A program made the position numbers and the translations under genes. Under the pieces are notes generated by a model. That model searched no databases, was not told where the DNA came from, and saw only the letters and a program-made list of their open reading frames with translations. Positions 2,497 through 54,790 of a stretch of 64,000 nt of DNA are shown one piece after another; the stretch's first letter is position 1; each line of letters starts with the position of its first letter. This stretch comes from Deltaproteobacteria bacterium (GTDB lineage Bacteria > Desulfobacterota > GWC2-55-46). The stretch is from assembly GCA_016234935.1 (NCBI GenBank), contig JACRNL010000001.1, positions 200,679-264,678 of the forward strand, written 5' to 3'.

Positions 2497-4167
2497 CTAA
2501 GCGCTCCATGAAGGCAGTCTTACGGTAAAGACCGTGCCTTCGCCCATGGCCGTTTTAAACGTTATCTCGCCGCCGTAAGTCTTTATGATGCCCTGCGAAA
2601 CGAAAAGACCCAGCCCCGTGCCCTTTCCGACATCCTTCGTGGTGAAAAAGGGGTTGAATATCTTCTCCGCGTCTCCCTCGCTTATGCCGGGGCCGTGGTC
2701 GGTAAATCTTATAAAGACAAACTCCCTCTGAGAGGGTTCAACCCTTGCAAACGCGCCATCCGCCTCACGGCCTGACGGCGTGTCCGTAATTCTTCTCTGG
2801 AGCCGGGCCGAATCAACCGGTTCTTTTTGCACCCCCTGAGGGGGTTCAACCCCTGTTTCAACGGTTATTCCAGCGGACGAGCCCATGCCTGACATGGCCT
2901 GAGCCGCGTTAAGGAGGAGGTTGATAAAGACCTGTCTTAACTTGCCCTCGTCTATAAACACGGGCGGCATCCCGCCTTGCAGAATCATATCCACCTTGAC
3001 CGCCTTGAATGCCTTGTGCATTTCAAGCCCGGCGACCGTATCATTCAAAAGGGCATTGACGTCAACGGCCGCGGCAGCCTTCGCCGAGGGCCTTGCAAGC
3101 TCAAGGAATTCCCTTACGATGGAGTCTATCCGCCCGGCCTCCGTTATCATCCTTCTGATTATATCCCTTTCCCCCTGAGGGGGCTCGGCCCCGTCTTTGT
3201 CCGCGCCGCCTTTTTCCAATATGTCAAGATAGCCCCGGAGCGCGCCCAGCGGGTTTCCAATCTCATGCGCTATGCCGGCGGACAGAGAACCCATTGCCGC
3301 GAGCGTCCTTGACCGCAGGAGTTCATCCTCCGCGTTCACGAGGTCAAGGTTCGCCCTTTCAAGCCTCTTTATCTCCGTCTCCACGCGCCCCGCCATCCTG
3401 TTGAAAGAGGCCGCGAGAGAGCCGACTTCATTTTCGACCGCCACGTCCGCCCTTTGAAAGGGTTCAACCCTCTCGCCAAGCGCGCCTCCAGCGATGCGCG
3501 TTGCCGCGTCATCCAGTTTTTTAATGGGGTTTATTATCGCTTTGGAAAGGAAATAAAAACCGATGGCGATTATGATGACCGAGTCCAGAAGCGCGTAGGC
3601 TATGACAAACCGCTTGACCAGGGCGAGGTCCTGGTTTACGTCCGCAAGCGGCACGTCGAAATCAACGTTGCCGTTTTTTTGCGAAAACGTATCCAGCGAA
3701 GCCGTCACGCGGAGCGCCTCGCCGGCGCCGCCTGAAAACCATCCGCCGCCGATCCTGCGAATCTTCACGCCTTGCGAGAAAAAGAGCTGCTCGGCCGCGT
3801 CCGTTTGAAAAGGCTGAACCCTTTGAAAGGGTTCAGCCTTTTTCACGGAGAAGCCTTCATTCAAAAGCTCCCTGCCGGACGCGTCCGTAAACCTGAATGC
3901 GTTTATGCCGGCCTGTTTGAGCGCTTCGGCGGCAAGGGCCGCCTTTCTTAAGGCGTCCTCTTTTGTCTGCCCGGCAGCGGGAAAACGCGCGAAGATAAAC
4001 CTTACAAACCTTACCGTATTCTCAGCCTCGCTTATCTTCCAGTTGACGCTCCTCATCTCGACGATCTTCACGCTCAAAAGCCCTATGAGACCGATACCTG
4101 CCAACGTCGTCAGGATTATCCCAGCGCCGAGCTGAGAGCGTATGCCGAGGGTAAACTTCATTGTCAA
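2497..4167 (-). CDS. Sensor histidine kinase, periplasmic-sensing, cognate to the sigma-54 activator; PilS-like by position
   Basis: Two transmembrane segments flank a periplasmic domain of about 150 aa. HAMP domain, HisKA H-box (HEIGNPL), HATPase_c G-boxes (DHGPGI, GTGLGL). A 4-bp gap separates it from the response-regulator gene. It carries four in-frame copies of repeat family A. Confidence 0.75.
2832..2853. repeat. Repeat family A unit (CCCCCTGAGGGGGTTCAACCCC), representative copy inside the sensor kinase
   Basis: Near-palindromic. Related copies at 3171, 3451, 3812, 5078, 5296, 5510, 6690, 6870-6930, 11329-11371, 14170, 16913-16988, 26938, 33441, 34681-34716, 35310-35360, 43555, 47228-47264 and 54630-54690. 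Confidence 0.85.
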
Positions 4168-4260
4168 ACCTGATTTTGTTTATCGGTTAAAAAATCGGCG
4201 GTTTATATATTGTCATTCCCGCTTAAGGACTGCTGGAATGACAACATAATAAAATCCCAT

Positions 4261-5040
4261 TCACTCGCCCGCCGCTTTCATCAGATACCACCTTATCAAC
4301 TCATCGCCGTAGAACAGATGAAGAAACGCGCCGAAAGCCAGAAACGGACCGAACGGCAGGGCGTATTTACTGTTCTTTCCGGTTATGAGCATAACCGCCG
4401 CGCCGATGACCGCGCCGATAAAAGACCCTGTAAGGACTGTGACGATTACAGCCCTCCAGCCAAGGAACGCGCCGATCATGGCAAGGAGTTTTATATCCCC
4501 TCCGCCCATGCCCTCCCTGCCCGTCATGTAATAATAGGCCGCCGCAACCGCAAGGAGAAAACCACCGCCAACGGCCATGCCGATAAGAGAGCTTGCCACG
4601 CCCGGAGCAACCATGAAAAAAGACAGTATGACGCCAAGGATAATTCCCGGAATACTTATTACGTCCGGTATCATCTTCAGCCTCAAGTCAATAAACGTTA
4701 TTACAATAAGCGCGGCGGAAAAGACAAACATGGCAAACAGCTCGCGCGACAGGCCGAACTTAACAAACAGGGCAACCGCGATAACCCCTGTGAGCGCCTC
4801 GACAAAAGGATACTGCACAGAAAGTTTGACCTTGCAAAACGCGCACCTGCCGCCGAGGAATATATAGCCGAATATGGGTATGTTGTAGTAAAACGGCACA
4901 AGCCTGCCGCACCCCTGGCACCTCGACGGCGGCGAGACAATAGAAATGCCCTCAGGTATGCGGTATATGCACACATTCAGAAAACTCCCCACAACCGCTC
5001 CAAAGAGAAACGGGATTATGTATATTATCCGGTCGATCAA
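4261..5040 (-). CDS. pilD: Prepilin leader peptidase / N-methyltransferase (A24 family)
   Basis: N-terminus GSFLNVCIYRIP and a CQGCGRL zinc tetracysteine motif. Multi-pass membrane protein, about 259 aa. Confidence 0.85.
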   Translation of the reverse strand: MIDRIIYIIPFLFGAVVGSFLNVCIYRIPEGISIVSPPSRCQGCGRLVPFYYNIPIFGYIFLGGRCAFCKVKLSVQYPFVEALTGVIAVALFVKFGLSRELFAMFVFSAALIVITFIDLRLKMIPDVISIPGIILGVILSFFMVAPGVASSLIGMAVGGGFLLAVAAAYYYMTGREGMGGGDIKLLAMIGAFLGWRAVIVTVLTGSFIGAVIGAAVMLITGKNSKYALPFGPFLAFGAFLHLFYGDELIRWYLMKAAGE

Positions 5041-5359
5041 AAAAACCCCTTAAATCTTCCCCCCCTTACATTCGCTCCCCCCTTTGGAAAAGGGGGCTAA
5101 GGGGGTCAAGCCCCTTCAAGGGGATTTTATAATGGTGCATCTCACCGCATTCCTGCAAACTCCGGCGCCCTTTCAAATCCTCCCTGCCCTTGTATGTTAG
5201 ACTGTGCCATATTGCGTAATTTTTAAATCCTTTTTTCTCCTCTCCCCTCGCGGGAGAGGGTCGGGTGAGGGGGCCGAGCCCCTTCAAGGGGCAACTTTCA
5301 CCCCCACCCTGCCCTCCCCCATCAAGGGGGAGGAGATAAGGAAGTGGTCATCAACCTGC

Positions 5360-5435
5360 CCTCCCCCGCACCACTCGCCTGCACGGTTGTTTGCGCTAAA
5401 TGATGTATTTGTGATGGCGAGTGGTGCGGGGGAGG
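5360..5435. repeat. Long perfect hairpin (20-bp stem, 36-nt loop)
   Basis: cctcccccgcaccactcgcc ... ggcgagtggtgcgggggagg, intergenic between pilD and argJ. Confidence 0.6.
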
Positions 5436-5571
5436 AATAAAAAAAATTGCATAACCGCGCCCGCCTCATCTCATAACTTCGAATTCCTTTACCTGCAAGC
5501 AACCCTCTTGCGGGTTCAAGTTGCAAACTTGAACCCGCACTCTGAAAGAACGTGTGCCGATAAAACACCAT

Positions 5572-6798
5572 CTACGTCCTGTATGCCGAATTTATCTTCA
5601 CATACTCGTAGGTAAGGTCGGTTGTCCAGAATCTCCACGCGGCCTTACCTATGCCGAGGTTGACGGTCATGTTGACCTCTTTTTCTTTCATGACCTTGGC
5701 CGCCTCTTTTTCCTTGCCTGTGTCAAGGCCGCGGCGGGCGACGGGCACGCCGTTAAACGTTATGTCAACCCTGTCTTCCTTCATCCGTATGCCAGCCCTT
5801 CCGAGGGCGGCGATTATCCTGCCACAATTCGGGTCTGCGCCGAAAAAGGCGGTCTTGACGAGCATGGAGGTCGCGATGGTCTTTGCGGCTTTTTTAGCGT
5901 CGCTTATTGTGGCCGCGCCTTTTATGTCTATCTCGATGAACCGCGTGGCGCCCTCGCCGTCTTTCACTATCAGATGGGCAAGCTTTAAAGCGACCTCGCT
6001 TAACATTTTACAAAAGACCTTGTAATCGGCTGTTCCTGATTTTATCTCACGCCCCTTGGCTGCGCCGTTGGCAAAAATCAAAACCGTGTCATTCGTGGAT
6101 GTGTCGTTGTCAACGGCGATGGAATTAAAGGACTTGTCAACGGCTTCCTTCAAGGCCTTTCTCAAGGCCGGATGCTTTATATTCGCGTCCGTCATGATGA
6201 ACGAAAGCATCGTGGCCATGTCCGGGCATATCATCCCAGCGCCTTTGGCGATGCCCGCGACGGTGACGATCTTCCCGCCGATGCGCCCTCTGGCCGTCGC
6301 GGTCTTTTGAAATGCGTCCGTGGTCATTATCGCGCGGGCCGCGTCCGTCAGGCCCAGGCTGCTGAGACCGCGTATAAGCCCCGGCGCTCCGGCCTCTATC
6401 TTTTCAATGGCGGGCATGACGCCGATAACGCCTGTGGAGGCAACGAGTATCTCGCCGCTTTTCAGCCCCAGTCCCTTTTCAATTGCCGAGGCCATGCGGA
6501 GCGCGCTCAAAAACCCGGCCCTGCCCGCGCTTACGTTGGCGTTGCCGCTGTTCACGATAACGCCGCGTGACACGCCCTTTTTCACCCGCTTGATATCAAG
6601 AAGCACGGGAGCGGCCTTGACCTTGTTTTTAGTGAACACCCCGGCGACCGCGGCTTTTGTATCGCTGATGATAAGCGCAAGGTCCAATGCCCCCTGAGGG
6701 GGTTCAACCCCTGTCTTTTTCAGCCCGCAAGCCACCCCGGCGGCCCTGAAACCGGGAACCATCAAATGATGCCTGTTTTTAGCGGTTTTTATCGGCAT
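5572..6798 (-). CDS. argJ: Bifunctional glutamate N-acetyltransferase / amino-acid acetyltransferase ArgJ
   Basis: MPIKTAKN...AAGVACGLKK...ATMLSFIMTDA...YVKINSAYRT, the ArgJ family with the self-cleavage region ATML. Start placed at the internal ATG. The 45-codon upstream extension in the track is repeat-derived. It contains an in-frame VEPPQG insertion. Confidence 0.85.
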   Translation of the reverse strand: MPIKTAKNRHHLMVPGFRAAGVACGLKKTGVEPPQGALDLALIISDTKAAVAGVFTKNKVKAAPVLLDIKRVKKGVSRGVIVNSGNANVSAGRAGFLSALRMASAIEKGLGLKSGEILVASTGVIGVMPAIEKIEAGAPGLIRGLSSLGLTDAARAIMTTDAFQKTATARGRIGGKIVTVAGIAKGAGMICPDMATMLSFIMTDANIKHPALRKALKEAVDKSFNSIAVDNDTSTNDTVLIFANGAAKGREIKSGTADYKVFCKMLSEVALKLAHLIVKDGEGATRFIEIDIKGAATISDAKKAAKTIATSMLVKTAFFGADPNCGRIIAALGRAGIRMKEDRVDITFNGVPVARRGLDTGKEKEAAKVMKEKEVNMTVNLGIGKAAWRFWTTDLTYEYVKINSAYRT

Positions 6799-6869: not shown

Positions 6870-6930
6870 CCCCCTGAGAGGGTTCATCCCATTGAAGGGG
6901 CTCAGCCCCTTGAAGGGGTTCAACCCCCAA
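6870..6930. repeat. Compound repeat family A cluster upstream of argJ
   Basis: ccccctgagagggttcatcccattgaaggggctcagccccttgaaggggttcaaccccc. Confidence 0.8.
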
Positions 6931-11089: not shown

Positions 11090-11413
11090 GGATTCCAAGC
11101 CTGTTTATGAAAATCTTTTACATTTTAAAGGGGTCAAGCCCCAATCCGGTAAAAGACAGCGGGAGACTCTTATACTTTTTGTTGCTTAGATTGATTAACA
11201 TACCGTTTACCAAATGTCAAGCCATTATCCGCGGTAAAATCAAACAGGGCGTTCTACGCATGGCCCGCATTCTACGACAATCCCCTTAATCCATCAGTGA
11301 CAAAAATCACCATCCCCCGCTTCAGCCTGCCCTTTGAAAGGGTTCAACCCTTTGAAAGGGTTCAACCCTCGAATGTTTCTATCGGGGGACACGCGAGGAC
11401 AGGAAAAACGGCG

Positions 11414-12100
11414 CTACGGGTGCATATACAGGACGACCCTGTCCTTTTCCATTTTAATATAGCCCTCTTCGGCCATCTTCTTCAATGCCCGGCTGACGAC
11501 CTCCCTTGAAGAGCCTATCATGGCGGCCAGCTCTTCGTGCGTCGGCCTTTCCACGTATATGATCTTTTCCTTTGCAGCGTCCCCGTGCTTTGACATTCCG
11601 ATAAGCGTGTGCGCTATCCTTCCGCACACGTCTAAAAGCGCAAGTCCGCCTATCTTCCTCGTGGCCTCGCGAAGCCTGCCCGTGAAGTACGCAAGGAGCG
11701 TGGTATAGACCCTGTGGTGCCTGCTTAGATATCCCAAAAACCCCTCCTTGCTTACTACAAAGCACTCGATGTCCGTTATGGCCTCGACGTTCGCCGAGCG
11801 GGGCTTGTTGTCAAGGATGGACATCTCGCCGAACATGTCGCCCTCCGTCAGTATCGCGACGACGATCTCCCTGCCCTCCTCGCCGTAAAGGTTTACGTTT
11901 ACCTTGCCGGAGAGGATGAAGTAGACGGCGTCGCCCATGTCTCCCTCGGTGACTATCTGCGTGCGCGCCGGCCAGCCCTTGACTTCGCCGATTGCGATGA
12001 AGTCCTTTATATAGAAGTCCTCAAGCCCCTTGAAGAGCGGATTCCTTGATAGGACCTCTTTAATGTCAACAGGATCTTTTTTAACGGTCTTGTCGATCAT
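11414..12100 (-). CDS. Crp/Fnr family transcriptional regulator
   Basis: cNMP-binding beta-roll (GDMGDAVYFILSGKV) plus a C-terminal HTH (EELAAMIGSSREVVSRALKKM). It overlaps the downstream tldD/pmbA gene by 4 bp. Confidence 0.85.
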   Translation of the reverse strand: MIDKTVKKDPVDIKEVLSRNPLFKGLEDFYIKDFIAIGEVKGWPARTQIVTEGDMGDAVYFILSGKVNVNLYGEEGREIVVAILTEGDMFGEMSILDNKPRSANVEAITDIECFVVSKEGFLGYLSRHHRVYTTLLAYFTGRLREATRKIGGLALLDVCGRIAHTLIGMSKHGDAAKEKIIYVERPTHEELAAMIGSSREVVSRALKKMAEEGYIKMEKDRVVLYMHP

Positions 12101-14131: not shown

Positions 14132-15913
14132 TTAATCATGCGGCTGTGTCTTGGGCGCGGCGCCCGCCTGGGGCTCGGCCCCTTTAAGGGGCGGCTCCTT
14201 CTTTTTCGAGAGCTTCTCCGCCATTTCCATAAGCTCGCTTGCGTGGCTTCTGGTGACGTCAGTTACCAACGCGCCGCCGAGCATCCTGGATATCTGTTCT
14301 ATGTTTTCCTTGCCCTTCAATTCCTTTATCATGACTACGGTATTATTGCCTTTCGTCTGTTTTGTGACCGCGAAATGTTTATCCGCAAAGGCCGCTATCT
14401 GAGGCAGGTGCGTTATGCATATGACCTGATGCGCCCTTGAGACCTCTTTGAGCTTTAGCCCGACGGCCTGCGCGGTGGCCCCGCTCACACCCGCGTCTAT
14501 CTCGTCAAAAACTACGGTTGAAACCCTGCCGGAGAGCGTGGCCCTTTTCATGGACAGCATTATCCTTGAAAGCTCTCCTCCGGAGGCGATGCGGGCGAGG
14601 GGCCTGGCCGCCTCTCCCGGATTCGTAGACAGGAGAAAGCTCACCCTGTCCGCGCCTTTTTCACCGAAACGCAGGCTCCCGTTCGGGTTCATTTCAGTGT
14701 CGACCTTCACGTCAAAGATCGTGCCCTTCATGCCCAGACCCTTCAATTCGTCCTCTATTTTCCCCTTGAGCCGCCCGGCGGCCTCATGGCGCGCTTTCGA
14801 GAGTTTTTCCGCGGCGGCCTCGGCCTTGTCCCTTTCGGCCTTCAGGGCCTTTTCAAGCTCCTTGCGGCGGTCATCGAAGTTCGTCAGGCCGTTTAATTCG
14901 TCGTCAAAGGCCTTTTTTCTGGCGAGTATTTCGTCTATGGAAGTGCCGTATTTCTTCTTGAGCTTGTTTATCTCGTCAAGCCGCGCGCCTGTCTGCTCAA
15001 GCTCGTCGGGGTCGAATTCAATGGTCTTTGAATAATCCCTCAGATACGCGCCGGTATCCTCTATCTGGTATGTGCCCGCCTCGATGACCTCAACGGCCTT
15101 TTTCAATTTATCGTCGTAGGCCGCCACGTCGCGGAGCGATTTTATGACGGAGCCGAGCCTTTCCATTACGGAGCCGGAATCGGAGTATATGATATTTTCC
15201 GCGTTGACAGCCGCGGCCTTTATCCTCTCGGCGTTCCGGAGCATATCTTTACGCTTCAGGAATGCCTCTTCCATGCCGGGCCTGAGCCCCGCGTCGCCTA
15301 TTTCCTTTGACTGAAAGGCCAGCATGTCCTTCCTGCCCGCCGCGTCCTTTGAATCGCGCAGCAGGTCGTCAAGCTCCTTTTTAATAAAATAATAGCCTGC
15401 ATACGCGTCGTGCATCCGGGCGCGCATATCAAAAAAACCGCCGAATGCGTCAAGGGCCTCTATGTGCTCCTCAGGCCTTGTGAGGGACTGGTGCTCGCTC
15501 TGGCCGCATATGTCTATAAGACGCATGCCCACCTCCGTAAGCGTGACCAGGGTGGCAAGGCTTCCGTTGATGTAAATCCTGTTCCTTCCGGCCTTTTGAA
15601 TGACCCTTTTTATAATGAGGCTGTCTGAATGCGGTATGCCTGCTTCCCTTAGAACGTGCTCTACGCCTCCGGCATCCGGGACGGCCCTGCCCGCGCAGCT
15701 TGAAACATCAAAGAGCGCCTCCACCTCGGCCTCCTCAGCCGAAGTCCTTACGATGTCGTTCGATGCCCTGTCGCCCAAAATCAGCGCGACGGCGTCTATT
15801 ATTATGCTCTTACCCGCGCCGGTCTCTCCGGTGAAGATGTTAAAGCCGGCGCCGAATCTGACGGTAAGGTTGTCTATGATGGCGAAATTTTTAATATGGA
15901 GCTCTGTCAGCAT
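14132..15913 (-). CDS. recN: DNA repair protein RecN
   Basis: MLTELHIKNFAIIDNLTVRFGAGFNIFTGETGAGKSIIIDA Walker A, coiled-coil middle region and C-terminal signature. Start trimmed by 34 codons. The C-terminal tail includes a repeat-derived KGAEPQAG. Confidence 0.9.
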   Translation of the reverse strand: MLTELHIKNFAIIDNLTVRFGAGFNIFTGETGAGKSIIIDAVALILGDRASNDIVRTSAEEAEVEALFDVSSCAGRAVPDAGGVEHVLREAGIPHSDSLIIKRVIQKAGRNRIYINGSLATLVTLTEVGMRLIDICGQSEHQSLTRPEEHIEALDAFGGFFDMRARMHDAYAGYYFIKKELDDLLRDSKDAAGRKDMLAFQSKEIGDAGLRPGMEEAFLKRKDMLRNAERIKAAAVNAENIIYSDSGSVMERLGSVIKSLRDVAAYDDKLKKAVEVIEAGTYQIEDTGAYLRDYSKTIEFDPDELEQTGARLDEINKLKKKYGTSIDEILARKKAFDDELNGLTNFDDRRKELEKALKAERDKAEAAAEKLSKARHEAAGRLKGKIEDELKGLGMKGTIFDVKVDTEMNPNGSLRFGEKGADRVSFLLSTNPGEAARPLARIASGGELSRIMLSMKRATLSGRVSTVVFDEIDAGVSGATAQAVGLKLKEVSRAHQVICITHLPQIAAFADKHFAVTKQTKGNNTVVMIKELKGKENIEQISRMLGGALVTDVTRSHASELMEMAEKLSKKKEPPLKGAEPQAGAAPKTQPHD

Positions 15914-16875: not shown

Positions 16876-17000
16876 TTACGCATACCTCATGCCTTTACGT
16901 TGCAACATCTCAAATCCCCCCTGCCCCCTTTTCTAAAGGGGGAGAATCAGATATTCCCCCTTTGTAAAGGGGGCTAAGGGGGATTTTGTAATGGCGTCTT

Positions 17001-18023
17001 TCACCTCTGTGGTTCTATGATCACCTTCATGGAATCTTTCGCCTCCGCGGTAAGTCTGAAACCAAGCCGTGCCTCGCCAAGTGAAAGCCTGTGGGTTATC
17101 ATGTCTGATACCTCGACCCTTTTACTTTCCATCAAGTTTAAGGCAACCTGAGTATCATATGGCGGAGAGGCGTATGAATTAACTATCGTTACGTTGTCCC
17201 TCCATAAATCAAAGACCGGCAGGGGATAGGTCTGGCCCGGCTCTTTGAGCGCGAAGAAGAGCACTGTCCCTGCCCTGTCAACGCTTTTAAGCCCCTGCGC
17301 GACCGCCCCGTCGCTCGCCGCGCACAGGATGACGACGTCCGCACCCCTGCCCAGAAAATCACGGACAGCGCAGGGGACGTCATCTGTGGCCTTTAACGTC
17401 AAATCCGCCCCGAACCTCTTTGCGGCGTCAAGCCTGAAATCGTTTATATCCGTGGCTATTATCCTGCCGGCGCCCAGCGCCCTTGCGAGCTTTATATGCA
17501 GAAGCCCTGAAAGGCCGCTTCCGATGACAAGAACGCTTTTGCCCGCCTCCACGCGCGCGGCCCTCTGTCCGCGCACGACGCACCCAAGAGGCTCCGAGAA
17601 GCTGCCCTCCTCGAAGCTGAGGCCGGCCGGCAGGATGAAAACGCCCCTGTCGGCGTTTATCGCAGGGACCCTGACGTATTCGGCAAAACCGCCTGGGAAA
17701 AAGTTCGTCGTCCTCAAGGTGTCGCACACGGAATGCTCACCCCTGAGGCAATACCTGCACGTATTGCACGGCACATGGTGCGCCGCCGTGACGCGGTCGC
17801 CGGGTGAAAACCGCGTCACACCCTTGCCGGCCTCTTCCACTATGCCGGCGACCTCGTGGCCAAGGACGAGCGGCGCCTTTTTTATGCGGTACCACTCCAT
17901 CACGTCGCTGCCGCATATGCCGCTGGCGATTATCCTTATAAGTATCTCACCGTCTGAAATCCTGGGCCTCTCGACCTCCTCCAGACGGACGTCTCTGTTG
18001 CTATAATACACTGCGGCGCGCAA
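17001..18023 (-). CDS. Zinc-dependent alcohol dehydrogenase family protein (threonine/sorbitol dehydrogenase-like MDR)
   Basis: GICGSDV...GHE catalytic zinc motif, structural zinc Cys cluster (CNTCRYCLRGEHSVC) and a GSGLSG Rossmann motif. Confidence 0.8.
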   Translation of the reverse strand: MRAAVYYSNRDVRLEEVERPRISDGEILIRIIASGICGSDVMEWYRIKKAPLVLGHEVAGIVEEAGKGVTRFSPGDRVTAAHHVPCNTCRYCLRGEHSVCDTLRTTNFFPGGFAEYVRVPAINADRGVFILPAGLSFEEGSFSEPLGCVVRGQRAARVEAGKSVLVIGSGLSGLLHIKLARALGAGRIIATDINDFRLDAAKRFGADLTLKATDDVPCAVRDFLGRGADVVILCAASDGAVAQGLKSVDRAGTVLFFALKEPGQTYPLPVFDLWRDNVTIVNSYASPPYDTQVALNLMESKRVEVSDMITHRLSLGEARLGFRLTAEAKDSMKVIIEPQR

Positions 18024-18115
18024 AAAAACCTCCTGACTGCGTCTATGAGCCGGATAACGTCAACTCCCCGCTTAAAGCCTGCGGGGACATGCTTTCTTAC
18101 CGGCGCTGATATCAA

Positions 18116-18940
18116 CTACGCTACCGCGGTCTTGTCTTTTTTATGGGCCTTTTTGCCCTCTTCCCTGGCCAGCGCGTTAAAGAGGTCCCATGCCTTGTCG
18201 GGCTTCATGTTGTTGTGGACGACCTCGCGCACTGTTCGTATCATGGACACCGGATGCTCGGACTGGAAGATGTTCCTGCCCATGTCCACACCGGCGGCCC
18301 CCCTTGAAACGGCGTTGTAGGAAAGCTCTATAGCCTCTCTTTCCGGTATCTTCTTGCCTCCGGCGATGACTATCGGCACGGGGCAGTTTTTCACCACGCT
18401 CTCAAAATCGTCGCAGTAATAGGTCTTGACGACGTGCGCTCCAAGCTCGGCGGCAATCCTGCAGGCAAGGCCGAGATAGCGCGAATCGCGCACCATGTCC
18501 TTGCCTACGGCCGTAACCGCCAGCACCGGCACGCCAAACTCCTCGGCCTCGTTCACAATGTTCGCGAGCGCAAGGAGCGTCTGCTTTTCAAGCTGCGAAC
18601 CGACGAATACTGAAAGGGCGACCCCGGCGACATTGAGCCTTAGGGAATCCTTCATTGAAACGGTCGTGCCCTCGTCGGCAAGGTTTCCGAGGATGCTTGT
18701 GCCGCCGGAGACGCGAAGCACCACCGGCACGTTCATCCGCGGGTCGACACAAGCGCGCAGAACGCCCCTCGTGAGCATCAAGGTGTCGGCATAGGGCAGG
18801 AGCGGGGCGACGGTCTTCCCCGGCTCCTCAAGGCCGGTCGTTGGCCCCAAGAAATATCCATGATCAACGGCAAGCATGACCGTCCTGCCGGTCTCCGGTC
18901 TTATGATCTTTGATAAACGGTTTCTCATTCCCCAATCCAT
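18116..18940 (-). CDS. Class I fructose-bisphosphate aldolase family protein (DhnA / AroA'-type)
   Basis: ETGRTVMLAVDHGYF N-terminal region and the DhnA-like barrel. Start trimmed to an internal Met. Confidence 0.65.
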   Translation of the reverse strand: MDWGMRNRLSKIIRPETGRTVMLAVDHGYFLGPTTGLEEPGKTVAPLLPYADTLMLTRGVLRACVDPRMNVPVVLRVSGGTSILGNLADEGTTVSMKDSLRLNVAGVALSVFVGSQLEKQTLLALANIVNEAEEFGVPVLAVTAVGKDMVRDSRYLGLACRIAAELGAHVVKTYYCDDFESVVKNCPVPIVIAGGKKIPEREAIELSYNAVSRGAAGVDMGRNIFQSEHPVSMIRTVREVVHNNMKPDKAWDLFNALAREEGKKAHKKDKTAVA

Positions 18941-19057
18941 ATATGCTGCCTCCTTATTTGTAATTAATATCCTGTAAAATGAAATTCGGCGAAAAGGCCG
19001 AGAAAACACGGGTTTATGATAGGAGGATAGCAAGCTAAACGCGATACGTCAACTATT

Positions 19058-19396
19058 TTATGAGCCATGCCTCTGAGCGTCTGCAGTAAAGGCGTCACGG
19101 CAGGAGCTTGAGCAGAAATAAACAGTCTCGCGCGCCGCGGCGAGCGAGACGGCGCTGCTTATCGGGACGTAATTCCCGCAGACCGGGTCAAGCGCTGTCT
19201 CTTCCGCGTTTTCAGGATGGTTTTTAACGGTATGCCGGGCGGAATTCGGAACCTTTTGCCCTTTGGCGGCGCCCTTCATAGCGGCTTTTTTGCCGCGGGA
19301 CACGGCAAACTTTTTCCGCAGGACGAATATCTTGACTACCAGATAGACAAGATACAGAAAGGCAAGCGCAATAAGAGTATTTATGCCCCTTTTCAT
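19058..19396 (-). CDS. YHS (TRASH-like) metal-binding domain membrane protein
   Basis: N-terminal TM helix. C-terminal DPVCGNYV...YFCSSSCRDAF YHS signature. A GGGAGG Shine-Dalgarno is present. Confidence 0.6.
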   Translation of the reverse strand: MKRGINTLIALAFLYLVYLVVKIFVLRKKFAVSRGKKAAMKGAAKGQKVPNSARHTVKNHPENAEETALDPVCGNYVPISSAVSLAAARETVYFCSSSCRDAFTADAQRHGS

Positions 19397-19568
19397 ACAA
19401 AAAAACCTCCCTGCTGAAAAGTCAGGTTGCTCAAAACATGTCCCCGCAGGCCTGCCCTCGCGTGTCTAAAGCGGGGGCTTTAAGCGGGGAAGCCCCGGCT
19501 GCCATGCGACGAAGCCTGCCCTCGCAGGCTTTAAGCGGGGGGCAACGACGTAGATGGGGCGCTTGAGG

Positions 19569-20075
19569 TCAGCCTGAGTGCGGAGTCAAGGCGTCAAGCC
19601 CGATGACCTTGTCTTTGCCTTTTACGCTCCCAAGCAGACTTCTTACATCTTTCCCAAGAACCGGGTGGATAAGATCAGGGGCTATCTCCCCGAGCGGCGC
19701 AAGGACAAAGGCCCTTTCATGCGCCGATGGGTGGGGAATAACAAGACCCCTGCCGCGGACTATCTTATCACCGTAAAACAGTATATCAATGTCAATCGGT
19801 CTCGGCCCGAAGCGGGCATTCTTGCCCCTGCCCATCTCCCTTTCGACGGACTTCAGGAGACCCAGCAACTCCGCGGGCTTAAGCGACGTTTTTATCCCGG
19901 CCGCGCAATTAATATATCTTGCGCCGGACGCGCCGCCCCAGGGGGCGGTCTCGTAAAAACGGCTTTTGCTGATTATTATTATTTCCCTGAACTCAGAGAG
20001 CCTCAAAAGAGCCCTGCGGCAGTTGCCTATCCTGCCGCCGAGGTTTGAGCCGATGGAAAGAAAGGCGCGCGTCAT
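19569..20075 (-). CDS. folK: 2-amino-4-hydroxy-6-hydroxymethyldihydropteridine pyrophosphokinase (HPPK)
   Basis: AFLSIGSNLG, ETAPWGG and IDIDIL motifs. About 168 aa. Confidence 0.85.
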   Translation of the reverse strand: MTRAFLSIGSNLGGRIGNCRRALLRLSEFREIIIISKSRFYETAPWGGASGARYINCAAGIKTSLKPAELLGLLKSVEREMGRGKNARFGPRPIDIDILFYGDKIVRGRGLVIPHPSAHERAFVLAPLGEIAPDLIHPVLGKDVRSLLGSVKGKDKVIGLDALTPHSG

Positions 20076-20104
20076 AAAATAAGAGGCCTGCTCGTCAGTT
20101 TGAC

Positions 20105-20157
20105 ATGTCCCCGCAGGCCTGCCCTCGCGTGTCTAAAGCGGGGGCTTTAAGCGGGGA
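20105..20157. repeat. Repeat family C (GTCCCCGCAGGCCTGCCCTCGCGTGTCTAAAGCGGGGGCTTTAAGCGGGG)
   Basis: Near-identical direct copy at 19438-19490 on the other side of folK. Partial copies at 19513-19541, 32941-32972 and 39187-39231. Confidence 0.8.
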
Positions 20158-20207
20158 TGCGTATGACGTATTTTTAAAAAACCATCATGTTCCTCGAAGG
20201 CAGCCGC

Positions 20208-34741: not shown

Positions 34742-36163
<1,422 letters not shown>

Positions 36164-36336: not shown

Positions 36337-36873
36337 TCACAGATACTTCTTTACCGCCTCATCCCACCTGCCCTGCGCTTTCAGGATCAGTTCGACGACT
36401 TCCCTTACCGCCCCTTTTCCGCCGGGCTTCATCGTGATGTAATGCACCCTCTGCTTCACCTCGTCAACCGCATCCGGCACGCAGATGGCGAGGCCGGCCC
36501 TTTTTAGCACGGGAATGTCGACGACGTCGTCACCCATGTAGGCGGTCTCTTCCGTTTTAAACCCTTCTTTTTCCAAGAGGTCGTCATAGGCCTTTGCCTT
36601 CTCAATGGCCCCCTGATAAAGCAGTTCTATGCCGAGGTTTTTGGCCCTGTGCTTTACGACGTCCGATTGCCTCGCGGTTATTATCGCCGCCTTTATCCCC
36701 GCCCTCTGGAGCATTTTTATGCCGTGGCCGTCGCGCACGTTGAAAAACTTCGTCTCCTCGCCCCTGTCGTTGTAGATTACCGAGCCGTCCGTCATCACGC
36801 CGTCAACGTCCATGATGAGAAGTTTTATCGGTTTTATCCGTTTAATCAAATCGCCGCCAAGTTCGATAGCCAC
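36337..36873 (-). CDS. kdsC: 3-deoxy-D-manno-octulosonate 8-phosphate phosphatase (HAD family)
   Basis: LLIMDVDGVMTDG HAD motif I and GDDVVD motif. About 178 aa. Confidence 0.8.
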   Translation of the reverse strand: MAIELGGDLIKRIKPIKLLIMDVDGVMTDGSVIYNDRGEETKFFNVRDGHGIKMLQRAGIKAAIITARQSDVVKHRAKNLGIELLYQGAIEKAKAYDDLLEKEGFKTEETAYMGDDVVDIPVLKRAGLAICVPDAVDEVKQRVHYITMKPGGKGAVREVVELILKAQGRWDEAVKKYL

Positions 36874-36890
36874 GCCTGCCTCCGGTGAAA

Positions 36891-39041
36891 TTATATTGCC
36901 TCAACCCTTACGCTGAAAGAAAACCCGGTGCTGGCAGGCGCGTCCAGATTCACGGGCATGAGAAAGACGAGGCACGCGCCCTGGAATATCTTTTCAAAAC
37001 CGGCCTCTGAAAGAGAGACCGAATAAATAGGGAACCTCCAGAGCCTGACCGGCGTCGAGACTTCTATGGTCACGCAGACGCCTGTGAATTTGTCAATCAG
37101 GCTGACGCCCTCCACGCCGGAAAGCTCTCCGGCGCTCCCAAGGCCGATGCCGGTTCCATCAATGCGCGCCCCCTCGCAGGGTGTCACACCCTTGAAATTA
37201 TAAAGGCACGCCGGACCGTCGCAGCACGGCAGAAGAAGATTTAATTCCACCGCCAGCAGAACCTCTCCGGGCGTATCGTCGCGCGCGTCTACGATGTCGT
37301 TGTCGACGCGGTAGCTCACGGTGAAGCCGTCCGCGCCGAGCGGCCTTATCTCCTTGGCGACAAAGACGCTTACGCCTTTCACGTCCGACCACTTTGAGAG
37401 GGAGAAGCCCTTGCCGTCATCGTCCACAAGGCATTCAAAGCGGCCATACGGGAAGTCCGCAAGCTCCGCATGGGTGTTCGCGCTGAACTCGGCAAACGTC
37501 GTCTCCCTGCCGATTACGTGCTCAACGAACGATCCTCTCCTGCGCGTGTCGAGCGTAAGGAGCTTATCAAGCCCCTTTTCCTTTACCAGCAGAAGGTCAT
37601 GTATGCTTTTAGCCGCCTCGAAGGCGCCGCCTGTCGCTATCTTTTCGAGCTTATGGTGGTAGCCCTCGGGCCATCGCGTGAGGACGTTCGAAAGGTTCAG
37701 CGCCTTTTTCATGTAATCAAACTCATAAAGGCCGCCGCCAATTCCGGGCGAAAAAAATAGGTTAAGTCCCGCTGTCTTTAAAATCACCTCGTCGTTGCCG
37801 TCGGCGTCCATGTCGGTCTTTTCTATGGAATTTCCCCCGCCGCCGCGCGCCTCCGCGACAAGCCGCTCAGCGGTCAAGAGGTTCTCATACACGGCAGTTC
37901 GCAGATGCGGCAGGTAAAGCCCGCCGAACACGCCGTGCCAGTACGCGTCGTTGCACTGTGCCTTATACAGCGCGCGCGTCGCCTCGCCCAGCGTCTTGTC
38001 TCCCGGCTTTAAGGCGCGCGCCTCCCCAAGCTCCATGCTGACCATGAGCATCCTCTTGTGCATCCAGTTGGCCTCAGGGTATTTAGCCATAAAATTCCTC
38101 CAGATGCCGCCCTGAACGAACTGCTTTATGCGCGACCCGTTGTCCCATTGCGCCGCGTCGTCCATAAGCGCGCCGTATGCCCTTGACGACGGCGCAGGCA
38201 GGGCCCACTCACCCATCTCCATGTATGACGTCGTCGGCAGATAGACCCTGCCAAGCGGATCCTCGGCGTCTATCAACCCCGCGAGAGTCACCGGGCGGAG
38301 CCAATCCGCGGACTCTTCTATCTTTTTAAAAAAAGCCTTAAGCCATCCTTCGTCGTAGACCGATTTATGCGTGCCCGGCCACACGCCGAACTTCTCGCCG
38401 TCGTCGCCGTAAATGGCGGCTTTGCCGCGGGTGAGCGTCGTCTTCAAAGACCTTAAATATCCTTCGAGACTGTCAACCGGCTGAAACGGTATCATGTAGC
38501 GCATGGTCTCGCTGCCAGGGAATATCTTGACCGTATTGCCCATATCCTCGGTGATGTAGTAGCCGCCGAGTTCCTCTTTAGGGATGCCGGACCTCACAAA
38601 ATGGTAATCATCAACGAGCAGATACTCGACACCCGCGTTTTTAAGCGTCGTGGGGAGCGTAGGCTCCCAGACCCTCTCGGCAAGCCAGATGCCGCGCGGA
38701 CGCGCGCCGAAAAGCTCCTCTATCCTGTCTGCCATCATCTTTATCTGCCCGATTCTGTCGCATTCAGGGATTACCGAAAGCACCGGCTCGTAGTGCGCGC
38801 CGCCCATTATCTCGACCTGGCGGGCAGATACCATTTCCTTAAGGAGCCCGATGTATTCGGGATGGCTCCGGGCTATCCAGTCAAGGAGAAAACCTGACGT
38901 ATGCAGCGTCAATTTTACCGATGGATATTTTGAAAGCAACTTCAGGAAGGGCCAATAAGCATTCTCATACGCATCTTCAAGGACATGGGGGAAGTTGCCG
39001 ACAGGCTGATGGTTGTGTATGCAGAAAGCGAAATATGTCAT
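36891..39041 (-). CDS. Glycoside hydrolase family 57 protein (alpha-glucan acting)
   Basis: CIHNHQPVGNF GH57 signature at the N-terminus. Large C-terminal extension. One in-frame GVTPCEG insertion. Confidence 0.75.
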   Translation of the reverse strand: MTYFAFCIHNHQPVGNFPHVLEDAYENAYWPFLKLLSKYPSVKLTLHTSGFLLDWIARSHPEYIGLLKEMVSARQVEIMGGAHYEPVLSVIPECDRIGQIKMMADRIEELFGARPRGIWLAERVWEPTLPTTLKNAGVEYLLVDDYHFVRSGIPKEELGGYYITEDMGNTVKIFPGSETMRYMIPFQPVDSLEGYLRSLKTTLTRGKAAIYGDDGEKFGVWPGTHKSVYDEGWLKAFFKKIEESADWLRPVTLAGLIDAEDPLGRVYLPTTSYMEMGEWALPAPSSRAYGALMDDAAQWDNGSRIKQFVQGGIWRNFMAKYPEANWMHKRMLMVSMELGEARALKPGDKTLGEATRALYKAQCNDAYWHGVFGGLYLPHLRTAVYENLLTAERLVAEARGGGGNSIEKTDMDADGNDEVILKTAGLNLFFSPGIGGGLYEFDYMKKALNLSNVLTRWPEGYHHKLEKIATGGAFEAAKSIHDLLLVKEKGLDKLLTLDTRRRGSFVEHVIGRETTFAEFSANTHAELADFPYGRFECLVDDDGKGFSLSKWSDVKGVSVFVAKEIRPLGADGFTVSYRVDNDIVDARDDTPGEVLLAVELNLLLPCCDGPACLYNFKGVTPCEGARIDGTGIGLGSAGELSGVEGVSLIDKFTGVCVTIEVSTPVRLWRFPIYSVSLSEAGFEKIFQGACLVFLMPVNLDAPASTGFSFSVRVEAI

Positions 39042-39137: not shown

Positions 39138-39239
39138 AATGAGAATGAAGACGAAATGTCTCTATCGTAGATTTATCTTGCCCTTGCATGCCTGCCCTCG
39201 CGTGTCTGAAGCGGGGGTTTTTAAGCGGGGGACGGCGCG

Positions 39240-42958: not shown

Positions 42959-44233
42959 TCAGCCCCTTAGACCCTTGGGCAGGGCATTTGATCTCACGTC
43001 TCCCATTGCCACGAGCGTGACGTTACGCGGGTCGAACAAGGCTCCGGCCAGCGGCGTGATATCCCTTATGGTAACACGGTCTATGCCGGCAGTTATCTCT
43101 TTAATCGGCACGACATGGCCGAAGTATATCTCATCCCTTGCGAGCTTTGTCATTCTGTTGTCGCTCGCCTCAAGGCCGAGGAGCATCGAACCCTTAAGCT
43201 GGCTCTTGGCGTTTTTAAGCTCATCGGATGTGACGCCCTTGCGGAGTTTTGCGAACTCCTTCATCACGAGCCTTACGGTTGCGGCAAAGCTCTCCTTTGA
43301 CGTCCCGGCATAGACCGTCAGCGCACCGGTGTCCTTGCACAGGTTCAGATAAGAATAGACCGAATACGCAAGCCCCCTTTTCTCCCGTATCTCCTGAAAC
43401 AGGCGCGAGCTCATGCCGCCGCCGAGGATGGTGTTAAGAAGGTATATCTTATAGCGGTCTTTATGCGCCTGCGCCGGCACGGGCACGCCCATGCAGAGGT
43501 GGGCCTGCTCAAGCTCTTTTCTGACGATGGTTGAGCCTGGAAAGGCAACGGGTCTTTCAAGGGGTTGAACCCCCTCAGGGGGCGCGCCGTCAACCGATAC
43601 CTTCAGCTTCCCGAACGCGCCATTTAGAAGTCTCGCCGCGCGACCATGCGCTATGCCTCCGGCGACGGTTATGAATACGGGGCCTGAGCGGTAATGCCTT
43701 TGATAATAATCAAGGATACCGGCCCTATCAAAGGATTTAACAGTCGCGGCCGTGCCTAAAACCGACCCGCCGAGTGGATTGCCCTGCCAGAACCTTTCGG
43801 CGAAGAGGTCGTGGATAAGGTCGTCCGGCGTGTCCTCCACGAGTTTTATCTCCTGCAGGACGACCATCTTTTCCTTATTAATCTCAACCGCGTCGAACAT
43901 GGAGTTTATGAATATGTCGGACAGGAGGGCTGTTGCCGCGCCCATGTCCCTGTTGAGCACCTTCACATAGAAGCAGGTATACTCCCTGCTCGTAAAGGCG
44001 TTGAGGATGCCGCCTACGGACTCTATCTCCTTGGAGATGTCAAGGGCGCTCCTTGTTTTGGTGCCCTTAAAAAGCATATGCTCGATAAAATGGGAGATGC
44101 CTCCCTGCTTGCGCGTCTCGTTGCGCGAGCCTGAGTTTACCCATATGCCGATAGACGACGACTCGGAGCCCGGCATCTCCTCGGTCAGGAGTTTAATGCC
44201 GTTTTTGAATACTGTTTTTTTGATAAGGGACAT
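42959..44233 (-). CDS. M16 family zinc peptidase (insulinase-like)
   Basis: HFIEHMLFKGT inverted zincin motif. Canonical position downstream of pnp. Contains a repeat-derived GVQPLERP insertion. Confidence 0.8.
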   Translation of the reverse strand: MSLIKKTVFKNGIKLLTEEMPGSESSSIGIWVNSGSRNETRKQGGISHFIEHMLFKGTKTRSALDISKEIESVGGILNAFTSREYTCFYVKVLNRDMGAATALLSDIFINSMFDAVEINKEKMVVLQEIKLVEDTPDDLIHDLFAERFWQGNPLGGSVLGTAATVKSFDRAGILDYYQRHYRSGPVFITVAGGIAHGRAARLLNGAFGKLKVSVDGAPPEGVQPLERPVAFPGSTIVRKELEQAHLCMGVPVPAQAHKDRYKIYLLNTILGGGMSSRLFQEIREKRGLAYSVYSYLNLCKDTGALTVYAGTSKESFAATVRLVMKEFAKLRKGVTSDELKNAKSQLKGSMLLGLEASDNRMTKLARDEIYFGHVVPIKEITAGIDRVTIRDITPLAGALFDPRNVTLVAMGDVRSNALPKGLRG

Positions 44234-47115: not shown

Positions 47116-47403
47116 TTCCCTTTTCACCTCCCTGTTGACGCCTTCTTTGTGAAAGACGCCTCGTAACGCATCAGTTCCGTATACTTTTCCATTTCAAAAT
47201 CAACAAGCAGCAAACGCCCTGACAATTTGAAGGGGTTCAACCCCTTGAAGGGGCTCAGCCCCCAAACGGCATAAATCATACCATCTCTTAATGCGCAAGC
47301 AAAGAAAAAAACAGTTGCCTTTCTTGAAAGGCCGGATACCCGGCGGCTCACGCCGCAGGCATGACAAACCGGACTATGCAAATGATATCTTCCTTGCCCG
47401 CGC

Positions 47404-52826: not shown

Positions 52827-52854
52827 CTTCCGTTTACCGGCGCGCGCAATTGGA

Positions 52855-54033
52855 TTATTCCTTGCCTTCGGCCTCTTCTCCCTTATCTTCGGCGGCCTCC
52901 TCTGCGGCCCTGGCCTTTTCAAGGGCATCCCTCGCGTCGGCGGCCTCTACCTCCTTGCGAAGGGCCTCGTCCGGCGACAGCGCTCCTCCTTCCTTTGCGG
53001 CCTTTGACTCAGTCTCCGTGTGTATGTCTATCTTCCATCCTGTAAGTTTTGCCGCGAGCCTGACGTTCTGCCCCTTCTTCCCGATGGCAAGCGAGAGCTG
53101 ATCGTCCGGGACGATAACTTCCATTGCGTGGGCCTGATCGTCCACAATGACCCTTGATATCTGCGCCGGTGAAAGGGTATTTTTAACAAAAACGGCGGAC
53201 TCGCTCGACCAATGGATGATGTCTATCTTTTCACCCTTGAGTTCCTGCACAACCGCCTGCACCCTTGATCCCTTCACGCCGACGCACGCGCCCACCGGAT
53301 CAACGTCCGTGTTGTGCGACACCACGGCAATCTTGGCCCTGTCTCCCGGCTCCCTTGCCGCGCCCTTTATCTCGACTATGCCTTCATAGACCTCCGGGAC
53401 TTCCATATGAAAGAGCTTCATGAGAAAGCCCGGATGCGTCCTTGATAATATTACCTGCGGCCCCTTGGCCTCGCTCCTGACGTCGAGCACCATGCCCCTT
53501 ATGCGCTCTCCCTGACGGTATCCCTCGCGCCTTACCTGTTCCTTCTTGGGTAAAAGGGCCTCTGTCCTGCCCAGGTCCACGATGATGTCGCCCTTTTCAA
53601 ACCTGTGGACGATGCCGGTGATTATCTCGCCCTTTTTCGAGCTGTATTCCTTGAAGATGATATTGCGTTCCGCTTCCCTGACCTTCTGGATGATTATCTG
53701 CTTGGCGGTCTGAGCGTCTATGCGGCCAAACTCTTTCGCGTCCAGCTTCACGCCGATGCTGTCGCCGAGCGCGACCTCCGGGTCAAGCGCCCTGGCGTCA
53801 TCAAAGGATATTTCGTGGTCGGCGTCGCCGGGTTCTTCGACGACCGCTTTAAACAAGAACAGCTCTATCTCGCCGGACTCTTCGTTAAAATGCGCCTCTA
53901 TCTCCTTGTTCGCGCCGAAACGCTTTTCCGCGGCCTTGAGCATGGCGGTTTCAAGGGCGTCTATAAGGACATGCCTGTCTATCCCCTTGTCCTTTCCGAC
54001 CTGTTCGATTATATTCGTCAGATTAACCGACAT
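52855..54033 (-). CDS. nusA: Transcription termination/antitermination factor NusA
   Basis: N-terminal domain, S1 domain and two KH domains. Start trimmed to [11 protein letters not shown]. Confidence 0.95.
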
Positions 54034-54145
54034 ATTCACTTCCTCCAAAACGTTTTGCGCTTCAGGCGCATGGAATGTATTTGCAATTAAATTAAAAAAC
54101 ACGGCTGGACTGCAAGCAGCGGCACTCGCCGGCCGGCGCCTGTTT

Positions 54146-54613
54146 TTAAAATTCTATAATGAGATTTGCCTTATCGATATCCGGCAGGTTCAGCCTGAAA
54201 CTTTTTCCGTCAAAGTCTTCTATGAGAAGAACTCCGCCCTCGACTCCCTTTATAACCGCACTGAAGTTGCGCCTGCCGTCTATCGGCGTCTTTGTCCTTA
54301 TCTTCGCCCTCTTGCCGGCGAAGCGGATAAAATCCTTTTCCTTTATAAGAGGCCTGTCAAGCCCTGGGGAGGATACTTCAAGGACATATCTTGCCGCCGG
54401 CATGACTTCTTCTACGTCAAGGATGGTGCCAAACTCCCTGCTGACGCTTGAGCAGTCGTCTATGGTGACGCCGCCGGGCTTGTCTATGAAGATCCTTAAT
54501 ATCTTCCTGCCGTGCTCGCTAACAAACCCGATATCCACGAGCTCCATGCCCAATGATAAAAGGAACGGTTCGGCTATCGCGCGTAATTTGTCTTCCAGAC
54601 CTTCGGCCTTCAA
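54146..54613 (-). CDS. rimP: Ribosome maturation factor RimP
   Basis: [18 protein letters not shown]-terminal signature. First gene of the rimP-nusA-infB operon. Confidence 0.9.
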
Positions 54614-54790
54614 AACGTCTCCAGAAATTCCCCTTGAATGTGTTCAACCCCCTGAGGGGGCTCAGCCCCTTGAAGGGGGTCACCCCCCGCATCGCGGGCT
54701 TGCTGTGCAAAGAAACAACTCTTTGCGCGCTGTCTATGACCGGCTTTTTTCACGTCCGCCGCGTCCTGTCGTAGGCCCGGCCCTTAGAAA

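Follow-up and report, generated by a model that had tools for sequence, protein, structure and literature searches.

What kind of element can place the same short, GC-rich near-palindrome both between genes and, in frame, inside essential genes of a bacterial chromosome? We addressed this question in a 64-kb stretch of core chromosome (the window) from an NCBI metagenome-assembled genome (MAG) of a Deltaproteobacteria bacterium, where an initial annotation had reported such a repeat, here called family A. The results show that this dense repeat is real: the 22-mer CCCCCTGAGGGGGTTCAACCCC has 12 matches in the window at three or fewer mismatches, compared to none in 100 shuffles, and a 31-mer of the family A core has four matches, compared to none in shuffles. 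Family A loci were called by a cyclic-profile scan, a run-chain parser and an independent repeat finder (families D1 and D2, self-spacing 18); the three methods agree and give 18 loci in the window, 10 of them intragenic. Together with a second family, family B, the 64 kb hold 37 loci, 20 of which lie inside genes. The initial annotation was right on the repeat, and the intragenic places that it named in the kinase, ArgJ, RecN, DciA, DUF1015 and M16 genes were all recovered, with gene identities assigned by Pfam. Missing from it were the length quantum of 18 nucleotides (nt), the RGGG target repeat, a fifth kinase insertion and family B.

Family A is built on an 18-nt cycle, CCCC-YTGAR-GGGG-YTCAR, which read as a unit is RGGG-TTGAA-CCCY-YTCAR (consensus RGGGTTGAACCCYYTCAR, a GGGG/CCCC repeat). 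The C and G runs alternate at 9-nt spacing, and each neighbouring pair of runs forms a hairpin with a 5-bp stem and a 3-nt loop (TGA or TCA triloop), the two hairpins overlapping each other. Direct translation of the cycle agrees with the earlier statement that four of the six reading frames are open; the closed frames are those that contain TGA.

Comparison with orthologues shows that the intragenic copies are recent, window-specific insertions, each of exactly 18 or 36 nt. For DNA alignment with the window we used loci of relatives (L007-L010, L012, L013, L023 and L026) at 81-90% overall nt identity. In argJ, the family A unit at 6690-6711 (minus strand) is an exact 18-nt insertion, GGGGTTGAACCCCCTCAG, preceding GGGG, in comparison to both L007 (90% nt identity) and L008 (85.5%). 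The empty site reads AAGACA followed directly by GGGGCATT, with no local template for 14 of the new bases. At the protein level, the inserted peptide is missing from 13 orthologues, one of them 94% identical; the insertion had been noticed before as GVEPPQG, while the orthologue alignment gives GVEPPQ.

The histidine kinase gene shows gains of 36, 18, 18, 18 and 18 nt compared to L009 (88% nt identity), all five absent from 12 aligned orthologues and all on the minus strand. The unit at 2724-2745, which is the one not reported earlier, encodes RVEPSQ; in comparison to L009 and L010, only the window has these 18 nt (2745-2728), and they are flanked by AGGG. It is followed by a unit at 2832-2853 (GVEPPQGVQ; 18 nt absent in L009), by an 18-nt insertion with a GGGG flank at 3171-3192 (GAEPPQ, in the loop of the DHp helical hairpin) and by one of the AGGG/CCCT subtype with an AGGG flank at 3450-3471 (VEPFQR, in the HAMP connector). 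The fifth, at 3801-3838 in the sensor domain, is a window-only insertion of two units (36 nt).

Further genes show the same pattern. Relative to L013, the DUF1015 gene has gained 36 nt of family A (two units, 35315-35355, minus strand) and 18 nt of family B; the family A insert is absent from L013 and 8 orthologues, and L026 independently lacks it. Its presence had been predicted correctly, as opposed to its length and peptide: instead of KGLSPLRGFDP, the alignment gives 12 residues, GSNPSKGLSPLR. Other gains compared to L013 are found in the genes for DciA (18 and 18 nt), a methyltransferase (18 and 18 nt) and a GH57 glucanotransferase (18 nt). The DciA gene, on the plus strand, contains a minus-strand family A unit at 33441-33462 (PLKGIS; 18-nt insertion, AAGGGG flank) in addition to one of family B. 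In the M16 peptidase, a unit in inverted orientation (43556-43583, plus strand) encodes PPEGVQ and accounts for 6 extra residues in comparison to PDB 3hdi. The RecN copy (14170-14191, minus strand, found by the cyclic scan) encodes PPLKGAEPQ in an extra C-terminal tail reaching past the aligned end of the L011 RecN, and is probably an insertion as well.

Almost all intragenic indels in these alignments measure 18 or 36 nt. Among the few that are not multiples of 18 is a compensated frameshift patch in the GH57 gene (37831-37854), where, compared to L013, 8 nt are missing and 11 nt have been added no more than 20 nt apart. Distant orthologues were also checked for these hexapeptides at the corresponding positions, and none was seen. 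Thus, as the initial annotation had proposed, the intragenic copies are lineage-specific in-frame insertions, absent from orthologues with 90-94% protein identity and from every more divergent orthologue.

The junctions reveal where family A inserts. Read with the G run first, an event yields RGGG TTGAA CCCY YTCAR followed by the original RGGG, a gain of 18 nt with the 4-mer repeated. An exact direct repeat of 4-6 nt (GGGG, AGGG or AAGGGG) is present at the junction in 6 of 8 single-unit family A insertions, against a probability of 0.035 for a repeat of at least 4 nt at random positions. The target 4-mer and the internal C run are concordant in all six (AGGG/CCCT three times, GGGG/CCCC three times), and in the 36-nt kinase insert (3836 site) the outer runs AAGG and CCTT pair. 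The inserted C run is the complement of the target 4-mer, and the family A target is RGGG. Certain sites are hit repeatedly: the kinase site at 2845 already reads GGGGTTGAA (coding for G-V-E) in relatives lacking the insert, and the insert at this hot spot measures 18 nt in the window and 36 nt in L010 as well as in L023. At the site of the 36-nt kinase insert, L010 bears a different 18-nt insert.

Arrays step by 18 nt, and the number of runs is odd in 54 of the 66 arrays recognised by the run-chain parser, as expected when a lone run is extended by complete 18-nt units; growth and shrinkage of the arrays would follow from the same steps. The intergenic copies listed in the initial annotation are partly upheld. 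Arrays of seven runs (3 units) lie on the minus strand between secA and argJ (6870-6928), where the L007 array is differently arranged, and 17 nt upstream of rimP (54630-54688; 31-mer search, cyclic scan and repeat finder). A two-unit array of the AGGG/CCCT subtype occupies 11329-11369 (minus strand; cyclic scan, run-chain parser and repeat finder), and two further arrays were detected by the 31-mer search, cyclic scan and run-chain parser: one of 4-5 runs and ambiguous strand between the DUF1015 and methyltransferase genes (34681-34717), and one of four runs on the minus strand between truB and rpsO (47227-47263). The single unit between hslU and argB (26939-26961, minus strand) is an exact match to the 22-mer. 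The copies placed at 5078, 5296-5330, 5510 and 16913-16988 do not stand; 5296-5330 is out of family register. Two plus-strand single units are found in this region instead, at 5100-5123 upstream of the prepilin peptidase gene (cyclic scan score 18; absent from L009 at the aligned site) and at 5268-5292 (intergenic, score 22).

Nearly all genes of the window lie on the minus strand, and its GC skew is negative throughout. Against this uniform skew, family A has the same orientation in 14 of 17 window loci, and in 18 of 23 when it is scored relative to the enclosing frames with metagenome contigs added. This bias fits a fork-linked process.

The alignment with L013 also brought to light 18-nt insertions of another sequence that only the window has, family B (AGGGTGTGACACCCTGCG, AGGG-TG-TGA-CA-CCCT-GCG). 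Families A and B differ in sequence and in the lengths of stem and loop, but the period is identical and an RGGG...TGA...CCCY core is common to both. Five of the six frames of family B contain no stop codon. Its 19 loci span 17810-37194, and 10 are in genes: four in the XerC-like recombinase, two in the methyltransferase, and one each in DciA, DUF1015, GH57 and ADH. Family B is absent from all relatives' loci compared, save one copy in the metagenome set.

In the XerC-like gene, plus-strand family B units are located at 29291-29305 (AGCHTL) and, as a pair 36 nt apart, at 29543-29593 (AGSHTL and AGSQTL) in the interdomain linker, which is about 26 residues longer than that of XerD (PDB 1a0p); a minus-strand unit at 29886-29900 (QGVTPC) coincides with a 12-residue insertion relative to XerD. 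Insertions of 18 nt are found in DciA (33703-33720, plus strand, KGVTPC) and, on the minus strand, in the methyltransferase (34237-34254, LGVTSC; 34586-34608, KGVTPC), DUF1015 (34924-34941, GVAPRE, absent in L013 and 8 orthologues) and GH57 (37177-37194, KGVTPC) genes. The copy in the Zn-ADH gene (17810-17824, minus strand) is a degenerate hairpin core with 3 mismatches and is weakly assigned. Between genes, family B also forms two-unit arrays of 18-nt period, at 30058-30090 upstream of the XerC-like gene (units at 30058 and 30076) and at 33018-33050 (33018 and 33036), both on the plus strand. Minus-strand copies lie 7 nt beyond the hslU stop codon (26991-27005; repeat finder family D5), between lepA and lepB (30905-30955, two units, of which 30921-30905 is absent from L013) and just upstream of dciA (33396-33414, an 18-nt window-only insertion), and one copy without assigned strand falls within a 31-nt window-only segment upstream of lepA (32813-32851).

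We then considered how such insertions are borne by the proteins. Eighteen nt equal six codons and most frames are free of stops (four of six in family A, five of six in family B), so insertions in protein loops are tolerated. In AlphaFold models, all five kinase inserts and the ArgJ insert fall in coil with pLDDT below 50. Kinase residues 319-328 (the 3171 insert) and 225-244 (the 3450 insert) are coil, the former with pLDDT below 50, and ArgJ residues 30-35 form a loop, likewise below 50. The M16 and XerC-like inserts fall in gaps or in the interdomain linker in comparison to PDB homologues (3hdi and XerD). No intact window gene contains a unit in a stop-containing frame, and on metagenome contigs arrays read as GAEPLQGAEPLQ... 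and RGFSPLRGFSPL... within long open frames. The inserts, as multiples of six codons without stops, are thus predicted to be translated.

Only 54% of the loci are in coding DNA, compared to a coding share of 87% for the window, corresponding to an approximately 5- to 6-fold depletion per base; this would be expected if most coding insertions are purged. Selection filters copies by frame and by position in the protein. Tolerated inserts would persist as hexapeptides, for example GVEPLQ, PLKGFN or PPEGVQ, and insertions elsewhere would presumably be removed.

The concern that the family might be a local artefact does not apply, as relatives and a separate metagenome carry it as well. L007 and L010 both have family A copies; no copies were found in L008, L009, L012 and L013 (81-88% nt identity), nor in the 21-kb syntenic L011, whose ArgJ shares 65% of its amino acids with that of the window. 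When arrays of four runs were searched for, 26 loci were obtained, of which 25 come from the JGI metagenome Ga0315281; together the 26 hold 49 family A loci in 61 kb. Family A lies at different sites on many contigs of this metagenome, two of which, L023 and L026, align with the window at 85-87% nt identity. In total, the family was found in the NCBI MAG, the Logan assemblies SRR22387972 and SRR15058747, JGI Ga0315281 and ENA OBEQ01, with different insertion sites in each. The picture is that of a recent burst in a narrow clade.

The relatives also have family A inserts of their own, at 2308-2351 and 2665-2698 in L010 and at 457-483 in L023. At an L010-specific insert, a 6-nt TTCAAG junction repeat was considered and rejected, since its offset is 19 and not 18. 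At the extreme 3' end of the kinase gene, family A units of the relatives rewrite or extend the C-terminus (NPLRGLPLQGLHQGSL in P0123). Outside this group, a 22-mer scan of genome contigs gave, among the matches listed (at least six loci, L001-L006), single look-alike copies in unrelated phyla. One is intergenic between two oxidoreductase subunit genes of a Candidatus Proendomicrobium MAG (L002, 1605-1637) and another is intergenic beside an IS3-type transposase on an alphaproteobacterial contig (L006, 1438-1459). At 42-43% GC these two are unlikely to be due to chance, and the Endomicrobium-like copy (42% GC) is too long for it.

How, then, do the units spread? Copy gain is the insertion of 18n nt, and the activity is recent and lineage-restricted. 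We consider it probable that the repeats are selfish, recently active copy-and-paste modules of fixed 18-nt length, and that they spread through RGGG microhomology in a process involving hairpins or single strands. Such a process would most likely take place at the replication fork, where a nascent 3' end finishing in RGGG would mispair with the CCCY run of an ectopic copy, copy one or more 18-nt periods and then return via the same 4-nt microhomology. Slippage between 18-nt-spaced repeats would subsequently expand or contract the arrays, and intramolecular template switching would keep the hairpins perfect. For the catalytic step, the main alternative would be a dedicated hairpin-recognising enzyme encoded outside the window. 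Several observations weigh against this model. Template switching is read only from the anatomy of the junctions, and no enzyme or donor locus was identified in the 64-kb window, which is all of the genome that was covered, so that a mobilising gene may lie elsewhere. The exact 18-nt period in two families of unlike stem and loop fits a protein ruler better than plain slippage. Family B has junction repeats of 0-3 nt, near chance, and no orientation bias; the RGGG microhomology rule may not be general, or the family B inserts may be older. A minority of arrays has an even number of runs, and the shared kinase hot spot could instead reflect an ancestral insert precisely lost in L009. The fold energies of single family A units as DNA (-3.4 to -4.7 kcal/mol) are no better than those of dinucleotide-preserving shuffles, and thermodynamics is therefore unusable as evidence; the 36-nt kinase insert (3801-3838) forms a 12-bp hairpin of -13.8 kcal/mol (z = -5.8).

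A more radical possibility, which we advance tentatively, is that of 18-nt nano-elements, a new kind of mobile DNA below the size of the smallest repeats (REPs, 21-65 bp) listed in a review (PMC3184786), pasting beside RGGG genome-wide, essential genes included. The single exact period of two unrelated families would then imply a dedicated, hitherto undescribed machinery for measuring length, protein-based or guided by nucleic acid; the rate of pasting would have to be high enough for five inserts in one kinase gene since the split from a relative at 88% nt identity. Mobilisation in trans is a serious rival, though in our view rather unlikely: here the units would be non-autonomous, and a single-strand hairpin transposase (RAYT or IS200/IS605-type Y1) or another recombinase, encoded elsewhere in the genome, would recognise the hairpin, cut beside RGGG and measure 18 nt. 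Two sequences sharing one exact period and the RGGG...TGA...CCCY core suggest a ruler of this sort, the target tetranucleotide is complementary to a sequence inside the element, and guide-sequence recognition in IS200/IS605 resembles this complementarity between the target and the C run of family A. The orientation of family A on one replichore (14/17) and the restriction of the burst to a narrow clade are also in line with it. However, Pfam identified no transposase domain in any of the 58 open reading frames (ORFs) of the window that were scanned, and the sole recombinase, the XerC-like gene adjoining hslVU, is itself hit four times; in addition, the GTAG or CGTC head of REPs is lacking, half of the copies are intragenic, and 18 nt is shorter than the substrates known for Y1 transposases. 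Host selection of a functional motif, which might signal DNA uptake, bind a protein or form an RNA hairpin acting in mRNA stability or termination, is improbable, despite the density of some 37 loci of both families in 64 kb, the many intergenic copies between co-directional genes near stop or start codons, the type IV pilus parts encoded in the window, and the possibility that uptake bias drives insertion alleles to fixation. Copies originate as 18-nt insertions rather than through base changes that approach a motif; in close relatives (81-88% identity) the corresponding sites are empty and give no hint of a replacement; and two unrelated sequences with weak hairpins behave alike, neither with an Rfam match.

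We give very little credence to minisatellites of the ordinary kind, in frame and confined to one locus, which replication slippage alone would generate without any dispersal. They would explain the arrays of 18-nt period and the variation in unit number among relatives at one site (18 versus 36 nt in the kinase), but not the identical 22-mers at unlinked loci (kinase, ArgJ, M16 and intergenic), the 18 and 19 dispersed loci of the two families or the empty argJ site without a local template. Slippage is thus refuted as the sole explanation, and survives only for array expansion. The least credible reading, verging on negligible, is that assembly or sequencing created the repeats: the window is part of a MAG and repeats can mislead assemblers, but the family is present in independent datasets (MAG, Logan, JGI and ENA), each with different insertion sites, and frames are preserved and stops avoided in every case.

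With copy-and-paste of 18-nt modules as the favoured explanation, we compared the repeats with known systems. They fall among the short, palindromic and selfish repeats known to enter genes without loss of frame, and are similar to Rickettsia palindromic elements (RPEs) and to cyanobacterial SDRs but far smaller. In concordance with the initial annotation, a full-text search of a literature library for the core sequences gave no relevant paper in a bacterial context, and neither the motif nor an element comparable to it turned up in the literature searched. The likeness to RPEs that it had drawn is apt for the in-frame, selfish-DNA aspect: RPEs are also palindromic repeats found between genes and in frame in genes of essential proteins, with peptides in tolerated positions, and ArgJ, the kinase, DUF1015, DciA and M16 likewise show in-frame insertion in conserved genes and absence from orthologues. 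To our knowledge, no strict length quantum or RGGG target repeat has been described for RPEs. By description, our repeats are set apart from them by their phylum and sequence, by their arrays and by their length of 18 or 36 nt, as opposed to approximately 105-146 bp for RPEs (Ogata et al. 2000, listed in PMC3184786).

The parallel with HIP1, on the other hand, fails, as GCGATCGC has no copy in the window and our copies arise by 18-nt insertion. HIP1 is an 8-mer palindrome that arises by substitution. The cyanobacterial SDRs, reportedly given as 21-27 nt by Elhai et al. in 2008, are closer relatives in kind. Like our units, which occupy 37 loci in arrays of 1-3 units, they are very short, hairpin-capable and dispersed, tandem or nested, have a target preference and no known transposase, and their mobility was deduced from insertion polymorphism between relatives, which we also observe. 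According to PMC5861425, SDR5 targets HIP1 and SDRs are found only in Nostocaceae. The present repeats differ in being 18 nt long, deltaproteobacterial and heavily in-frame coding, and are distinguished from SDR1-8 by phylum and by the absence of HIP1.

REPs and REPINs share with our families the short, GC-rich, high-copy hairpin repeats, single or clustered, and a single-strand hairpin mechanism is suspected for both. REPs, at 21-65 bp, are among the smallest repeats (PMC3184786), and are extragenic, most having a GTAG or CGTC head and associated RAYT genes (PMC3184786, PMC3733652, PMC3116915). Here, in contrast, 20 of 37 loci are intragenic, the consensus (RGGGTTGAACCCYYTCAR or AGGGTGTGACACCCTGCG) has neither GTAG nor CGTC, and Pfam found no RAYT in the 58 ORFs of the window that were scanned. 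For the same broad group, a precedent is known from Geobacter metallireducens, whose multicopy elements of four tandem GGACCGG heptamers occur within genes and were read as regulatory (PMC2700814). These elements show no hairpin cycle, no 18-nt quantum and no demonstrated insertion polymorphism. Tiny GC-rich hairpins that invade coding sequence are also known from fungal mitochondria as mobile GC-rich hairpin clusters, double-hairpin elements and byps; they are organellar, measure about 27-55 nt or more and often do not preserve the frame, the ribosome bypassing byps. Every insert described here, by contrast, is a stop-free multiple of six codons.

Other classes were considered and rejected. 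MITEs have terminal inverted repeats, a target-site duplication and a length of about 50-500 bp; a 4-nt target repeat is seen for family A, but its unit is an 18-nt hairpin cycle not bounded by terminal inverted repeats. DNA uptake sequences have a 9-12-nt core and arise by point substitution, whereas all intragenic copies examined change length. A locus-specific minisatellite or variable-number tandem repeat is incompatible with the same unit at 18 unlinked loci and with empty sites that offer no local template. CRISPR arrays have spacers, while these units abut head to tail at 18-nt period; SECIS-like UGA hairpins conflict with the avoidance of in-frame TGA, G-quadruplexes with loops that are too long and paired, and there is no resemblance to dif/Xer or integron attC sites.

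What is notable as new is the 18-nt quantum, the RGGG target repeat, the existence of two families with one period and the very recent, high activity. If mobile, these would rank with the smallest bacterial DNA units that appear to move, bringing the lower size limit of mobile DNA down to 18 nt. With dozens of dated insertions, empty sites and hot spots, they offer a natural system for studying the spread of short hairpins without an obvious transposase. They also represent a route to loop insertions, as identical hexapeptides are seeded in many essential proteins and provide raw material for loops, linkers and tails. On the practical side, the inserts lead to overestimates of divergence, disrupt the alignment of orthologues and can mislead gene callers on MAGs, and strains could be told apart on a fine scale by their insertion polymorphism.

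The surrounding gene content is that of a core chromosome: by Pfam, the window encodes secA, argJ, recN, the arg operon, hslVU, the XerC-like gene, lepA, lepB, pnp, rpsO, truB, infB, nusA and rimP. Rfam and tRNA scans returned no Rfam family and no tRNA in the window. Two differences in gene content from relatives accompany the loci studied. L013 has about 3 kb with four extra genes (3500-6600) between the HAD hydrolase and DUF1015 genes, which the window lacks (36264-36338), and L011 has an HEPN gene (11285-11707) between argJ and the prepilin peptidase gene.

The window contains further repeats outside the two families. At 5078 and 16913-16988, the sequence initially assigned to family A is a different hairpin motif, CCCCCTTTnnAAAGGGGGCTAAGGGGG. 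It is part of a motif, CCCCCTTTnnAAAGGGGGCTAAGGGGG..ATTTTrTAATGG, common to 5070-5140 and 16920-17000, located upstream of the genes for prepilin peptidase and NAD kinase, where it may act in regulation. The copy assigned at 5510 is an unrelated perfect palindrome with a 13-bp stem (GCGGGTTCAAGTTGCAAACTTGAACCCGC, 5497-5537), which lies just downstream of argJ and looks like a terminator. An intergenic repeat of about 58 nt, ACATGTCCCCGCAGGCCTGCCCTCGCGTGTCTAAAGCGGGGGCTTTAAGCGGGG, is present at 19436-19493, 20103-20160 and 39176-39233 (also at 19514 and 32932), with two copies 98% identical, and pieces of it occur on the Ga0315281 contigs L024 and L033. Finally, a 141-nt intergenic repeat without an Rfam match has two copies at 80% identity (26760-26900 and 59758-59898) and relatives at 87-97% identity on the metagenome contigs L027, L031 and L035; candidates for its nature are a MITE-like element and a small RNA.

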